Source of the DNA: Escherichia phage FL12
Direction: 5' to 3' (one strand)
DNA: 64,000 nt
Sequence record: PP400786
Shown: positions 36,935-63,333 of the stretch, one piece after another
Layout of the letters: every line of letters starts with the position of its first letter
Numbering within the stretch: position 1 is the stretch's first letter
Program-made: the position numbers and the translations under genes
The notes under the pieces: generated by a model
Database searches by the model: none
The model's input: only the letters and a program-made list of their open reading frames with translations
Told to the model about the DNA's origin: nothing

Positions 36935-37405
36935 TTAATCATGTTTCCACACCCCATCGGTATTTGACCAAAGTCGCTGATTATCTGATCCTCGCCACAG
37001 CTTTTTGGTCGGAAGATTTTTCTCATACTTCCCATCAATAATAACATCAACATATTTAAGCATTTCTAGTTGTTTAATATCTTCAAATTTATATCCTGTC
37101 CACAACCAAATGCTTTTATTGGGATAAAGATTTTTTACTGTTTGAACAATGCAATGAACAACATCTCGGTTATCAGGATAGAGAGGGTCTCCTCCAGTTA
37201 TAGTTAATCCTTCTATATAATCATTATTCAAACATTCAATTAATTGTTCTAGTGTTTCACCAGTGAATGGAACGCCATTTCTAGCGTTCCATGTTGATTT
37301 ATTATAACACCCTTCACATTTATGCAAACAACCTGTAACGAAAAGAACGACCCTGCATCCAGGGCCATTCACAAAATCGCAAGGATAAAATCTATCATAA
37401 TTCAT
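36935..37405 (-). CDS. nrdG: anaerobic ribonucleotide reductase activating protein (radical SAM)
   Basis: 156 aa; CLHKCEGC CxxxCxxC motif. Confidence 0.85.
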   Translation of the reverse strand: MNYDRFYPCDFVNGPGCRVVLFVTGCLHKCEGCYNKSTWNARNGVPFTGETLEQLIECLNNDYIEGLTITGGDPLYPDNRDVVHCIVQTVKNLYPNKSIWLWTGYKFEDIKQLEMLKYVDVIIDGKYEKNLPTKKLWRGSDNQRLWSNTDGVWKHD

Positions 37406-39219
37406 TGGTGTTTAACCCTATGCATGATTTCTTTATTTTTGCCGAGATTAAATCCACGTTCGTTCGGATTTCCCAAATAACCACAAGTTCTTCTTATTGT
37501 GTTCATCTTTTTAGGATCAGTTTCTCCACAAATAGAACAAACAAACCCGTTTTCAGTAGGAGTCATTTCATGGGTACTTCCACACGTAAAACATTTATCT
37601 ACTGGCATGTTAACACCAAAATAATCTAAATGTTGTGCAGCATAATCCCATACAGCCTCAAGACCTTTTAGGTTATTTTTCATATCAGGAAGTTCAACAT
37701 AAGAAATGTGACCGCCTGTCGCAATGAAATGATATGGGGCTTCGCGAGAAATCTTTTCAAACGGAGTAATATTTTCTTCTACTGAAACGTGGAAACTGTT
37801 AGTGTACCAGCCTTTATCAGTAACATCCTTTACACTTCCATATTTCTCAGTATCAAGTTTACAGAAGCGATAACAAAGGTTTTCAGCAGGTGTAGAATAC
37901 AAGCTAAAAGCAAAACCAGTTCTTTCAGTCCACTGCTTAAGACGAGCATTCATTTTAGTTAAAATTTCCTGTCCAATATCACGACCGACAAGAATATTCA
38001 ATTCGTGAATACCAATGTATCCTAAGGACACTGAACTTCTACCGTTTTTAAATAACTCAATTATATCATCATCGGGTTTAAGACGAACCCCGAATGCACC
38101 TTCTTGGTAAAGAATAGGAGCAACAGTAGCTTTAACTCCTTTTAATGAACTAATTCTACACATCAATGCTTCAAAACACAAATCCATTCGTTCATTGAAC
38201 AATTCGGCAAATTTCTGTTCATTGAACTGTGTTCCAATATAAGAATCTAATGCAATACGAGGAAGATTCAGTGTTACAACGCCAAGATTATTACGTCCAT
38301 CAAGAATTTCATTACCAGTCGAATCTTTCCATACGCTCAAGAAACTGCGGCAACCCATTGGAGAAACAGGAATAGATGAACCTGTGATAGCTTTATTGTT
38401 CTTAGCTGAAATAATATCAGGATACATTCTTTTGCTTGCACACTCTAGAGCAAGCTGCTTAATATCATAGTTCGGATCGTCTTTATAAAGATTAACACCT
38501 TCTTCAACGAACATAACAAGCTTAGGGAAAATAGGAGTTATCCCATCGCGACCAAGGCCTTTAATACGATTTTTCAGAATTGCTTTCTGAATCATTCGTT
38601 CAGTCCAGTCAGTTCCCGTGCCAAATGTAATTGTTACAAAAGGCGTTTGTCCATTTGAACTAAAGAGAGTATTTACTTCATATTCATAAGCTTGGAACGC
38701 ATCGTATACGTCTTTTTCTGTTTTAGATTGGGCATAATTCAACGCATCAGCGATTTGCCATTTTTCTGCATCCTCAATATGTTTTGCATAGGTGCGTTTA
38801 ACATAAGGAGAAAGGACTTTGTCTACATTTGCAAAAGTCGTTCCACCGTATTGATGGGAAGCAACCTGTGCAGTAATTTGTGCCATAATTGCAGTAGCAA
38901 CACCGATTGATTTAGGAGTTTCAATCTGTGCATTACCGAGCTTAAATCCGTTCTCAAGCATTCCTTTTAAATCTACTAAACAGCAATTAGTAAATGGAAG
39001 AGCAGGGGAATAATCAATATCATGGAAATGAATAATTCCGCTTTCATGCGCTTTCATAATAAAAGACGGGACCATATTTTTGGCAATGTGTTTAGACACA
39101 ATACCAGCCATAAGGTCCCGTTGAGTTGGAAAAACACGAGAATCTTTATTAGCATTCTCGTTCAAAAGGTCTTTATTAGTTTTATGAATCAATCCTTCAA
39201 TTTCTTTTTCAATTGTCAT
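37402..39219 (-). CDS. nrdD: anaerobic ribonucleoside-triphosphate reductase (glycyl radical enzyme), uninterrupted
   Basis: 605 aa; C-terminal glycyl radical motif RRTCGYLG; zinc ribbon CFTCGS...CSIC. Confidence 0.9.
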   Translation of the reverse strand: MTIEKEIEGLIHKTNKDLLNENANKDSRVFPTQRDLMAGIVSKHIAKNMVPSFIMKAHESGIIHFHDIDYSPALPFTNCCLVDLKGMLENGFKLGNAQIETPKSIGVATAIMAQITAQVASHQYGGTTFANVDKVLSPYVKRTYAKHIEDAEKWQIADALNYAQSKTEKDVYDAFQAYEYEVNTLFSSNGQTPFVTITFGTGTDWTERMIQKAILKNRIKGLGRDGITPIFPKLVMFVEEGVNLYKDDPNYDIKQLALECASKRMYPDIISAKNNKAITGSSIPVSPMGCRSFLSVWKDSTGNEILDGRNNLGVVTLNLPRIALDSYIGTQFNEQKFAELFNERMDLCFEALMCRISSLKGVKATVAPILYQEGAFGVRLKPDDDIIELFKNGRSSVSLGYIGIHELNILVGRDIGQEILTKMNARLKQWTERTGFAFSLYSTPAENLCYRFCKLDTEKYGSVKDVTDKGWYTNSFHVSVEENITPFEKISREAPYHFIATGGHISYVELPDMKNNLKGLEAVWDYAAQHLDYFGVNMPVDKCFTCGSTHEMTPTENGFVCSICGETDPKKMNTIRRTCGYLGNPNERGFNLGKNKEIMHRVKHQ

Positions 39220-54374: not shown

Positions 54375-54836
54375 TCATTGAGTTTTAATTACTGCTTTAG
54401 AAGCCTTTCCTGGTAAACGACGACTGTTAATAATTGCCATCCTGCATTGAAGTGACGGGTTTTTGAACTTCTCATTAGGCTTACAAACTGTAAATCCAAG
54501 CCAAAGATTTCCATCTGTGATTTCTAAACGTCCAGGACGATATTCAACCCCATCAATAAAATCCTCATCAATGTCAGGACGCGGAGGCATACTTAGGAAT
54601 TCATTAACTTCTAAAACATGGTCTTTTATTTTATGGAATAATTCAAAAACATATGTCTCATCAATCTCCCGTTGAATTGCACGATCAAGAAGATGTTGAG
54701 AATATTTTAGATGAAACGATGAGACCCCTGCTGCTTTTGATGCCTCACGAATCTCATTGTTAATTTGACGAAACTCCGACTCAAAGTGACGACGAAGCTT
54801 ATTTCGACGGATAAAAACTTCTGTATTGATAGTCAT
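54375..54836 (-). CDS. regB: endoribonuclease RegB
   Basis: 153 aa as T4 RegB; MTINTEVFIRRNKLRRHFESEF. Confidence 0.75.
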   Translation of the reverse strand: MTINTEVFIRRNKLRRHFESEFRQINNEIREASKAAGVSSFHLKYSQHLLDRAIQREIDETYVFELFHKIKDHVLEVNEFLSMPPRPDIDEDFIDGVEYRPGRLEITDGNLWLGFTVCKPNEKFKNPSLQCRMAIINSRRLPGKASKAVIKTQ

Positions 54837-55171: not shown

Positions 55172-55438
55172 CTAATATTTTTCCTCTGGTTGGAACACAG
55201 CACGACAAGCCCACATACTGGCTTCTTTGAGTTTCGTTTTAGCAATAGTTAACTGATCGAGGCTTTCGGCGTAATTCTTCGCGAGTTCATCATCTTCACA
55301 GCTATCAAATGCTTCCCAGAATTCATCATATAAAGCATCAAAGATAAGTCCTAAACGAACTTCAGCGTCTTTGATAGCATTCACTTTACCGATTTTCTCT
55401 TCAGTATGTGGCTTATAACCCTTAATGTCTTCAATCAT
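55172..55438 (-). CDS. hypothetical acidic protein terminating at an in-frame amber codon
   Basis: start moved to ATG 55436-55438 (MIEDIKGYKPHTEEK), 88 aa; TAG stop at 55172-55174. Confidence 0.45.
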   Translation of the reverse strand: MIEDIKGYKPHTEEKIGKVNAIKDAEVRLGLIFDALYDEFWEAFDSCEDDELAKNYAESLDQLTIAKTKLKEASMWACRAVFQPEEKY

Positions 55439-55652
55439 ATTTGACTTCCTCACCAGTACATAAATCATATTCAACTAAACGAATAGGTTCATGAATGCCA
55501 TATCCCTGAACAGAAATTTCTGTCGTAGGATAAATTCCATCAATATCACCCATATTCCACGCTTCATTAAATTGCTGTTCGCCTGAATTACTAAACCATT
55601 CTGCGAAAGCATTTAGCACATCTTCAGAACCTTCAATAATTATCTTTGCCAT
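55431..55652 (-). CDS. small acidic protein
   Basis: ORF track 73 aa. Confidence 0.45.
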   Translation of the reverse strand: MAKIIIEGSEDVLNAFAEWFSNSGEQQFNEAWNMGDIDGIYPTTEISVQGYGIHEPIRLVEYDLCTGEEVKYD

Positions 55653-56014
55653 TACAAACTCTCGGTGAAGGTACGAGCGATAACGTCGCGCTGCTGTTCC
55701 GGAGTCAGAGAGTTAAAGCGAACTGCATAACCGGATACACGGATGGTCAGCTGCGGATATTTTTCCGGATGCTTAACTGCATCTTCCAGAGTTTCACGAC
55801 GCAGAACGTTAACGTTCAGGTGTTGACCACCCTCAATTTTAACTGTAGGTTGTGTTTCAATTTCAATTTCACGGGCATGCAAACCATAGAAAATTTCTGG
55901 GTCTACAATAGCGTCTTCTTTAAAAGTCTTAGAGACAATAATCCGGGCTTGAATACCGTCTTCAAAATAAATAGTACCTTTATGCGTGCCTTCAAGAATT
56001 TGATATGCTTTCAT
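55652..56014 (-). CDS. autonomous glycyl radical cofactor (GrcA/YfiD-like)
   Basis: 120 aa; C-terminal half [60 protein letters not shown] is the GrcA glycyl-radical domain; T4 encodes the homolog Y06I. Confidence 0.8.
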
Positions 56015-56021
56015 ATAAACC

Positions 56022-56351
56022 TCAATTAGAAAATAAATTTATCCAAGATTGTTCTTTAATTAAAAATGGCTCAGAATCATATGCCATTAAACTTTGGGTG
56101 ATTAGTCCTTTAAAAGGTCCATCAATAAATTCCATGGTAAAATATGGAATTTTATTCATTAGCCGTGCATTAGGAGCAGTACACAAAACTCTGCATCCTT
56201 TGAATACGCCTTTTTGTAATTTGTATTGCTTAGGATAAAATTCGCTCAAGACGTTGTTATTTGCCAAAATTTCAAAATGATTCACCAATTTATTTTTAAT
56301 AGTTTTTGGCGAAAAATAAAGATATTCGAAAAGCTGAGTGTCTGTCATCAT
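56022..56351 (-). CDS. hypothetical protein
   Basis: start moved to ATGATG 56346-56351 ([13 protein letters not shown]), ~109 aa. Confidence 0.4.
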
Positions 56352-56887
56352 TGCATTCCGATTACGAAAAACTGTGGACGAGTAATACCACCAATGCAGC
56401 ATTTACTATTGCAACAGTGGTGCACAGTTTCAATATGAGCATCATAAATCTTATCCATATCAGGAGATTTGACAGGCTCATCAATTATATACAAAATTCG
56501 CGAAAGCGATAAACCTCTGAACTTGCTTCCTTTATTACCAATAAAACTGCGCACAGAATCAGTAAATAAACGAAAACGTATATCATCATTAGAATAACGC
56601 GAAAATTCCTTTTTAATGTCATCTGCGGAATTTTTAGCATAAACTGAAGTATTAGAAAGAACAATAACTGTTCCGCCATCATACAACCAGTTAGCAGCGA
56701 AGTTAGTCACAGCAATTGATTTACCGGATTGACGTCCACCATCTATACGAAGTGTACAGTACTGCTTGAGTACGTCTTCAAATGGTGGGACATAACCGTT
56801 CTTACAAATTTCTTCTACTCTAGCATCAGAATGGTGTGTAAAAGCATTCATCAGGGATAGATAAGGTCCAGTTAAAAATGTTCTCAT
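56348..56887 (-). CDS. small P-loop NTPase with C-terminal Cys cluster
   Basis: 179 aa; Walker A GGRQSGKS; Walker B LYIIDEP; HHCCNSKCC. Confidence 0.5.
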   Translation of the reverse strand: MRTFLTGPYLSLMNAFTHHSDARVEEICKNGYVPPFEDVLKQYCTLRIDGGRQSGKSIAVTNFAANWLYDGGTVIVLSNTSVYAKNSADDIKKEFSRYSNDDIRFRLFTDSVRSFIGNKGSKFRGLSLSRILYIIDEPVKSPDMDKIYDAHIETVHHCCNSKCCIGGITRPQFFVIGMQ

Positions 56888-62830: not shown

Positions 62831-62916
62831 TTAAAATCCTTGAAATAATTTATTGGTTATTAATTATTTATCACGTTGTTATATGTAACAGCATTCTCCG
62901 AGCGATTCAAACTAAA

Positions 62917-62940
62917 AGCCCCAACCTTTCGGTCGGGGCT
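62917..62940 (-). terminator. rho-independent terminator after the stable RNA cluster
   Basis: minus strand agccccgaccgaaaggttggggct followed by TTTTAGTTT. Confidence 0.5.
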
Positions 62941-62991
62941 AAGCCTTGCGGCAACCTTGTCGGGGTTCCACCTGCTAAGGCAAGTGTTTGT

Positions 62992-63083
62992 ACGAAACGC
63001 CGGGATTCGAACCCGGTTATTAAGCAGTTGACGCTACTCAATATTTTTAAAAGGCCATATCTCGACCATATCCGAACGTTCCG
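62992..63083 (-). ncRNA. tRNA-like stable RNA (canonical T-arm CCGGGTTCGAATCCCGG and acceptor-like ends; ~92 nt)
   Basis: Own inspection; 5' CGGAACG can pair with 3' CGTTTCG; no clear anticodon arm, so possibly a T4 species-1/2-type RNA. Confidence 0.35.
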
Positions 63084-63256
63084 TCAAAAACGCTACTCGG
63101 CTTACGGCAAAGATATTTCCTCGAATCGATAATTCGGTGCGCCGTTTCTGCTGTGATGTAAGAGGGCATTAGCAGATCGTAAAGATTTGTTAATGCCAGT
63201 CCTTAAACAGGGAACATCAGTCCGACGACTTACCGGTAGCGACCCGGTTTCTTATT
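63084..63256 (-). ncRNA. GC-rich structured RNA segment between tRNA-Arg and the tRNA-like RNA
   Basis: no ORF; 7-bp hairpin GGCATTA...TAATGCC; ~50% GC versus ~35% background. Confidence 0.3.

Positions 63257-63333
<77 letters not shown>

Follow-up and report, generated by a model that had tools for sequence, protein, structure and literature searches.

How does a small gene in the AT-rich genome of a lytic phage come to have one half that nearly duplicates a chromosomal gene of its host, and what might the phage gain from it? The question is posed by the gene vs.6 of Escherichia phage FL12 (sequence record PP400786), of which a stretch of 64,000 nucleotides, here called the window, was analyzed. 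A preliminary description of the window, made from the sequence alone, had pointed to a GC-rich island at about 55655–55860 in which the last 60 or so codons specify a domain like that of the E. coli glycyl radical protein GrcA (also called YfiD), and had regarded this host-derived domain as fused to an AT-rich, phage-like N-terminus. We consider it highly probable that vs.6 encodes the Tequatrovirus Y06I cofactor, that it is a mosaic formed by replacement of part of a phage gene with host grcA sequence, and that the host sequence was acquired once or a few times and afterwards spread among phages. The parts of the gene are as follows.

55652–56014, minus strand: vs.6, ortholog of the T4 gene for Y06I; ATG start, 363 bp, 120 aa; a phage GrcA, or autonomous glycyl radical cofactor
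55652–55836, minus strand: host-derived patch, gene nt 179–363, aa 61–120; the glycyl radical domain, corresponding to the 3′ segment of E. coli grcA
55668–55831, minus strand: zero-mismatch core of 164 bp, gene nt 184–347, 100% identical to the SK1144-type grcA allele in an ungapped alignment
55655–55667, minus strand: tail, the last codons (TFTESL), with five synonymous differences from E. coli at sites that vary among T4-type phages
55837–56014, minus strand: phage-lineage 5′ half, gene nt 1–178, aa 1–59/60; AT-rich, a diverged GrcA N-terminal region
55730–55732, minus strand: codon for Gly95 (in RVSGYAV), the glycyl radical site, equivalent to YfiD Gly102 and to Gly734 of pyruvate formate-lyase (PFL)

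There are several indications that the 3′ half is of host origin. First, its composition is out of place. The patch is 49.7% GC, compared with 34.8% in the 5′ half of the gene and 34.2% in the whole window, a level attained by just 0.07% of 185-bp windows, and the GC content of third codon positions (GC3) rises from 0.22 in the 5′ half to 0.48 in the 3′ half. Composition is thus far from uniform across the gene and the island reported earlier is real, although it was drawn about 25 bp too long on its upstream side, the true boundary lying at 55836/55837. Second, blastn finds gene nt 179–363 at 96.8% identity to grcA in every one of 5,426 complete E. coli genomes, and finds no match to nt 1–178 in any of them. 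Third, the encoded residues E61–L120 are identical at all 60 positions to residues 68–127 of E. coli GrcA. Fourth, the only mismatches to the SK1144-type allele are synonymous, one at nt 183 and five in the last five codons. Finally, when the entire 64-kb window is compared with the E. coli genomes by megablast the patch is the sole match, apart from an echo of about 80% in pflB. The recognition of a GrcA domain and the proposal that its DNA came from the host are both borne out by the complete amino acid identity, the 185-bp match, the 164-bp exact run and the sharp breakpoint described below.

One other place in the window is equally GC-rich on the 185-bp scale. It lies at 62889–63115, matches the T4 stable RNA region rnaC/rnaD at 88%, and adjoins a tRNA-Arg gene (63257–63333, minus strand). 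No Rfam family covers the GC-rich spot at 62889–63115, the tRNA being the sole match.

The edges of the patch can be placed closely. At the 5′ edge, a maximum chi-square analysis puts the breakpoint after gene nt 178 (55836/55837), with 51% identity to host grcA on the left and 96.7% on the right, a statistic matched or exceeded in none of 5000 permutations. At the other end, similarity to the host grcA region drops to 22% downstream of the stop codon. The last 15 or so nucleotides of vs.6 already share synonymous states with outgroup phages (354G, 357T and 360A), and the last five codons have a pairwise synonymous divergence (pS) of 0.70 among T4-type copies. Because the tail carries these outgroup-phage states, the 3′ junction too appears to lie inside the vs.6 coding sequence. 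An internal replacement of this kind, with conserved coding sequence on either side, is what characterizes recombination between homologous genes.

Identity between phage and host could in principle arise with no transfer of DNA, if selection on the protein, on codon usage or on mRNA structure had made the 3′ half converge on that of E. coli. Conservation of the 60-aa domain is indeed extreme, and in several phage lineages its residues are exactly those of E. coli. However, Citrobacter phage Maroon has the same 60 aa with a pS of 0.59 from E. coli and a longest exact run of 17 nt, and pS from E. coli is 0.59–0.70 across Maroon and RB43-type phages, whose 60 aa are identical to those of the host or almost so; the identity of the patch therefore does not follow from protein constraint. 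Nor would convergence be expected to leave about 42 synonymous sites unchanged over a 164-bp run, to produce so sharp a breakpoint, or to bring GC3 to a host-like level in a genome rich in AT. Among the enterobacteria, moreover, it is E. coli in particular that the sequence follows, the core having 100% identity to that species, 98.8% to the cryptic Escherichia sp. MOD1, 92% to Citrobacter amalonaticus, and less to other genera. Convergence without DNA transfer is extremely improbable and can be considered effectively refuted, and the gradient of identities points to Escherichia as the donor.

Identity by itself has no direction, and E. coli might instead have taken the 3′ end of its grcA from a T4-like phage. 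Yet the neighborhood of host grcA, between ung and eamB, is conserved, and its 3′ segment diverges gradually across the enterobacteria, with pS of 0.05 for MOD1, 0.31 for Citrobacter and 0.61 for Salmonella (0.31–0.66 over the genera beyond Escherichia; outgroup phages stand at 0.38–0.70 from E. coli). The composition of the segment is normal for the host and anomalous for the phage, in which it forms an island, and phage lineages outside the T4 type do not have the sequence. For these reasons transfer appears to have run from host to phage, and the reverse course, which we rate as the least probable of all those considered, is effectively refuted.

What, then, was replaced? Two observations bear on the 5′ half. 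First, although it is only 51% identical in nucleotides to host grcA in a codon alignment (18 of 51 aa identical), it belongs to the same family. A hidden Markov model (HMM) derived solely from the first 66 residues of GrcA, in 68 distinct host sequences, matches aa 21–59 colinearly with its positions 27–66 (18.6 bits, E = 7e-8), and the alignments to the NCBIfam model TIGR04365 (GrcA) and to PDB 6OWR (E. coli YfiD/GrcA) extend over this region too; pairwise BLASTP between the phage and host N-terminal halves gives nothing, and it was the profile methods that showed the homology. Second, full-length unpatched homologs are present in RB69-like/Mosigvirus-like phages, Pseudotevenvirus, Slopekvirus, Jiaodavirus, Krischvirus, and Aeromonas T4-like and T5-like phages, and nt 1–354 of vs.6 are about 79% identical to vs.6 of a Klebsiella Jiaodavirus. 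Because the N-terminus is GrcA-homologous and full-length unpatched homologs exist elsewhere, vs.6 is best read as an old phage grcA homolog whose glycyl radical half was overwritten from E. coli. Fusion of the domain to an unrelated phage N-terminus, as first supposed, is rejected on the same two grounds; the description of the N-terminal half as AT-rich and phage-like holds, but this half is homologous to the GrcA N-terminus and colinear with it.

In Klebsiella phage KPV15 (1501–1862) vs.6 is annotated as two short coding sequences, 1501–1650 and 1707–1862. A scan of this region finds an open reading frame (ORF) of only 243 nt, whereas a related Jiaodavirus has an intact vs.6 of 363 nt, and the gene appears to be disrupted in KPV15.

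Neither the gene vs.6 nor its family and activity are new, and in many GenBank records it bears the annotation 'autonomous glycyl radical cofactor'. The window is from a Tequatrovirus, with vs.6 and the surrounding 2 kb 95–97% identical to many T4-like coliphages. As the preliminary description had it, T4 encodes a homolog: T4 vs.6 (NP_049730) is identical to the window protein at 116 of 120 aa (95.6% of nucleotides in the genes), and the order vs.8-vs.7-vs.6-vs.5-vs.4-vs.3-regB is that of T4. The Pfam Gly_radical domain is found at aa 60–101 (67.3 bits, cutoff 22.2), with the RVSGYAV motif at aa 92–98. The best NCBIfam model is TIGR04365, with 156.9 bits over aa 20–120 (model positions 25–126). 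The closest solved structure is 6OWR (E = 1.8e-42, aa 22–120), followed by the C-terminus of PFL, with aa 58–120 aligned to PFL 697–759 (E = 5e-26). The product is a small standalone protein, its ORF having neighbors on both sides, and is not part of a full-length glycyl radical enzyme. Its neighbors are as follows.

56022–56402, minus strand: vs.7 homolog, upstream of vs.6; used as a background gene for synonymous diversity
55431–55652, minus strand: vs.5 homolog, assigned by ORF and gene order; its own ATG overlaps the vs.6 stop codon (TAATG)
55172–55474, minus strand: vs.4/Acb2 homolog, two genes downstream of vs.6
54375–54836: regB, a neighbor matching the T4 and ECO4 annotation

The tail of vs.6 is also the translation initiation region of vs.5, with GAGAG located 6 nt upstream of the vs.5 ATG, and this may favor keeping the phage version of the sequence there. 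An antisense ORF of 127 codons, TTG-initiated, spans the whole of vs.6 (55646–56029, plus strand) and is most likely incidental to the coding sequence on the sense strand. The vs.4 homolog has a Pfam Acb2/Tad1 hairpin domain (70.6 bits), a family of phage sponges of cyclic-nucleotide immune signals that act against the cyclic-oligonucleotide-based antiphage signaling system (CBASS).

The distribution of the patch among phages is sharply divided. Phage records compared with the E. coli 185-bp segment fall into a bimodal distribution, with 638 at 95% identity or above, 8 at 90–95%, 298 at 80–90% and 566 at 60–80%. The highest class consists of Tequatroviruses, T4 and T2 among them, and a few genomes labelled Mosigvirus. 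The 5′ junction at nt 178/179 is common to all 16 copies that were aligned, and in 10 of them every one of about 42 synonymous sites is as in E. coli. Synonymous diversity across these copies and in the adjacent genes is as follows, the value for the 5′ half being taken from a codon alignment in which OES_C-2 has a 6-nt indel.

vs.6 core, 16 copies: mean pairwise pS 0.057 (0.030 without two Mosigvirus records); segregating sites 12 singleton, 4 shared
vs.6 5′ half, 16 copies: mean pairwise pS 0.20; segregating sites 4 singleton, 25 shared
vs.7, 16 copies: mean pairwise pS 0.32
vs.5, 11 copies: mean pairwise pS 0.11

Diversity in the core is thus 3.5–6 times below that of the vs.6 5′ half or vs.7, which makes the patch younger than the variation in the flanking DNA. 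Homologs in other lineages are 70–91% identical to any sampled host grcA, with longest exact runs of 11–53 nt, and represent either the unpatched state or much older acquisitions. No host-identical patch is seen outside the T4 type when more than 80 phage copies are set against grcA from 80 host loci, the best being 88.5% (a Jiaodavirus against Pseudocitrobacter); as K. pneumoniae grcA is absent from this host set, Jiaodaviruses may yet have a Klebsiella-specific patch.

Some individual records deserve mention. Two phages classified as Mosigvirus, JN02 (vs.6 at about 1023–1385) and vB_EcoM_EP32a (about 1201–1563), carry T4-type vs.6 with the E. coli patch. In EP32a most of the core differences from E. 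coli are RB69-like or other outgroup-phage states, which suggests that patched and unpatched phage alleles recombine across genera. Pseudomonas phage PsgM02F (95.7%) and Salmonella phage F13076 (98.4%) have an E. coli-type patch within T4-like gene order, which suggests that they changed hosts recently or that their host labels are doubtful. The 19-kb IMG/VR contig IMGVR_UViG_2706794630_000006 has a grcA that is 91% identical in nucleotides to that of Yersinia artesiana, and the N-terminus it encodes is entirely of the host type (134.5 bits with the host HMM); the contig probably comes from a bacterium or a prophage and not from a lytic phage.

How often has the host sequence been acquired? 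The alternatives are that the patch entered once or a few times and then moved between phages, or that pieces of host grcA enter infecting phage genomes by recombination again and again, erasing mutations in the core as they do so. Under the second, T4-type vs.6 would evolve in concert with host grcA, its segment being continually reset to the host allele. Phage and host share perfect identity over at least 164 bp, which provides a substrate for such recombination, and the low diversity of the core, star-like around the E. coli sequence, is what repeated resetting would be expected to produce. The differences from E. coli cluster near the edges of the patch, and the 3′ endpoint looks variable and partly nested, in the order window and ECO4, IMGVR91 and T2, IMGVR90, T4.

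The variants within the core give a more divided answer. Several of them equal natural host alleles, 219C being the K-12 type, 192G the O157:H7 type and 282T the MOD1 type; among the 16 copies 219C is found in IMGVR90 and JN02, and 192G in IMGVR90. At these coinciding sites, though, outgroup phages have the same bases, and recombination with unpatched alleles or recurrent transitions therefore explain the shared single nucleotide polymorphisms (SNPs) equally well. The combination of 192G and 219C in IMGVR90 is, moreover, present in no E. coli genome searched. The overall spectrum is also unlike that of the host. The SK1144 type is the commonest core allele of E. coli but accounts for only 45% of genomes (2,419 of 5,426), others including 219C, 192G and 339C (a soil isolate), whereas the exact SK1144-type core is found in 10 of the 16 phage copies, and T4 and T2 have the SK1144-type base at 219 rather than that of K-12. 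A rough binomial calculation gives a probability of about 6e-4 for at most two of 16 copies having a known alternative host SNP, treating as independent copies that are not. Across all phage records, 65 match the 219C version of a 60-mer exactly, as conversion from K-12-type hosts might predict, but 384 match the SK1144 version, and the 65 (RB3, RB5–10 and AR1 among them) may all belong to a single related group and so not be independent. The E. coli-type patch is still present in copies from phages that were isolated on Salmonella or Pseudomonas. We therefore regard recurrent conversion, and with it the idea of concerted evolution with host grcA, as rather unlikely, though much the strongest of the alternatives. 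If it were true, concerted evolution would be keeping a spare part in exact fit with PFL (PflB) and its activase PflA despite host DNA degradation and cytosine modification, and vs.6 would be a natural read-out of the frequency of recombination between a strictly lytic phage and host DNA.

The reading that we favor, as the most parsimonious, is one acquisition, or very few, from an SK1144-type allele, followed by spread through phage–phage recombination; a single event is inferred in preference to many. An old AT-rich phage grcA homolog would have had nt 179 to about 347–357 replaced by E. coli grcA through recombination within conserved coding sequence, and the patched allele would then have spread among Tequatroviruses and some Mosigvirus-labelled phages by recombination between phages.

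The function to be expected of the product is suggested by studies of its relatives. YfiD and T4 Y06I acquire a radical from the PFL activating enzyme and then form a complex with PFL cleaved at Gly734, restoring its activity, according to PMC8683613, which summarizes Wagner et al. 2001; the restoring activity attributed to the T4 homolog in the preliminary description is thus documented there. According to PMC13450708, the N-terminus of YfiD is disordered and its C-terminus resembles the glycyl radical domain of PFL. By analogy with Y06I, to which it is 97% identical, the window protein is predicted to receive a glycyl radical from PflA and to rescue oxygen-cleaved PFL. The host activase would install the radical on Gly95, the activated protein would dock onto host PFL cleaved by oxygen at Gly734, and PFL activity would be restored, such that production of acetyl-CoA and formate could continue in infected cells during anaerobic-to-microaerobic shifts. 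Sustained supply of these PFL products during infection would be the likely benefit to the phage. The patch (aa 61–120) coincides with the region aligning to PFL 697–759, which is the part that needs to be recognized by host PflA and to fit cleaved PflB, and an exact host copy of this module would presumably guarantee compatibility with both.

A different partner is conceivable in the phage itself, in which two genes encode a second glycyl radical system.

37402–39219, minus strand: nrdD, anaerobic ribonucleotide reductase (Pfam NRDD 572 bits, Gly_radical 90.5 bits)
36935–37405, minus strand: nrdG, the radical-SAM (S-adenosylmethionine) activase of NrdD (Pfam Fer4_12 165 bits, and Radical_SAM)

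Both genes had been noted beforehand, and the phage had been credited with two glycyl radical systems; as a count of genes this holds, with vs.6 matching the PFL/GrcA domain and not showing significant pairwise similarity to NrdD. Could vs.6 nevertheless be a spare part for the phage NrdD, activated by NrdG, rather than for host PFL? The presence of nrdD and nrdG in the same genome would allow it, a role in nucleotide metabolism was speculated upon in a 2006 comparative paper from the shared Pfam domain (PMC1524935), and spare parts for other glycyl radical enzymes have been called conceivable (PMC8683613). However, BLASTP of vs.6 against the NrdD of the window gives no significant similarity (best E = 2.6, with the radical motif unaligned), which makes such a role unlikely, while the domain is identical to GrcA at 60 of 60 residues and aligns strongly to PFL, and the T4 protein is described in PMC8683613 as working with the PFL activating enzyme and cleaved PFL. 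We consider the NrdD role very improbable, and a role with host PFL remains the preferred reading.

Several points weigh against the overall account given here. First, the shared 5′ junction is not decisive on a single event, because it also marks the limit of homology to the host gene, where every conversion tract would be bound to stop. Second, the core variants 192G, 219C and 282T coincide with natural E. coli alleles, and more than one donor is conceivable. Third, the 16 copies are phylogenetically non-independent, and the collection of E. coli genomes is not a sample of natural hosts. Fourth, the TIGR04365 score falls short of the curated equivalog cutoff of 170, because the N-terminal half of vs.6 has diverged; the cutoff reflects a bacterial training set rather than loss of function, and the validated T4 protein has the same N-terminus. 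Finally, no infection phenotype of vs.6 was found in the literature surveyed.

For T4 specialists the gene and its biochemistry are textbook-level, and the finding mostly confirms that the annotation is correct. A full-text literature search, with key older papers outside its coverage, found no description of the nucleotide-level E. coli grcA mosaic, its boundaries or the low diversity of the patch; we claim no priority, and the fine-scale mosaic is a modest new detail. Nonetheless, the DNA picture is a clean one, an exact sub-genic E. coli patch of 185 bp, the sole one in 64 kb, inside an older phage homolog. Together with the youth of the patch relative to its surroundings and its coincidence with the part facing PflA and PflB, this makes vs.6 a convenient natural marker for both host-to-phage and phage-to-phage recombination in T-even phages, and an illustration of the way in which an auxiliary phage protein stays matched to the machinery of the host.

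Among known systems the closest is T4 Y06I itself, whose gene is an ortholog located between vs.7 and vs.5 with the same E. coli-derived 3′ patch and the same 5′ junction. The T4 protein differs by A35S, I36F, T54P and R73H, the window having R73 as in E. coli GrcA, and the last five codons of the window gene have five differences from E. coli compared with two in T4, and thus more phage-type states. E. coli GrcA/YfiD (P68066; PDB 6OWR) is likewise a small standalone protein with RVSGYAV, an identical C-terminal 60 aa and a colinear, weakly homologous N-terminus. The vs.6 product is 7 aa shorter, its AT-rich N-terminal half is only about 35% identical, and it scores below the TIGR04365 cutoff; its gene lies in a lytic-phage run of small same-strand ORFs, with its stop overlapping the vs.5 start, and not in the ung-grcA-eamB context. 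The C-terminal domain of PflB (PDB 1H16, 2PFL) resembles vs.6 over aa 58–120, corresponding to the part of PFL (697–759) that is lost or inactivated upon oxygen cleavage at Gly734. The patch, though, is about 80% identical in nucleotides to pflB compared with 96.8% to grcA, and the vs.6 product has no catalytic barrel and could therefore serve only as a complementing fragment. The homologs in other T4-like and T5-like phages (RB69-like, RB43/Maroon, Slopekvirus, Jiaodavirus, Krischvirus and Epseptimavirus) share the family and domain organization, and the T4-like ones also the neighborhood of vs.6, but they have no host-identical patch.

A broader parallel is provided by psbA of cyanophages, a host-derived auxiliary metabolic gene that recombines with host alleles. 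There, as here, the genome of a lytic phage includes a version of a host metabolic gene, which would sustain the metabolism of the host during infection, and parts of the gene are exchanged between host and phage copies. In vs.6, however, the exchange involves just 185 bp of a 363-bp gene, it has occurred in a coliphage that degrades host DNA, and the product is a repair cofactor rather than an enzyme.

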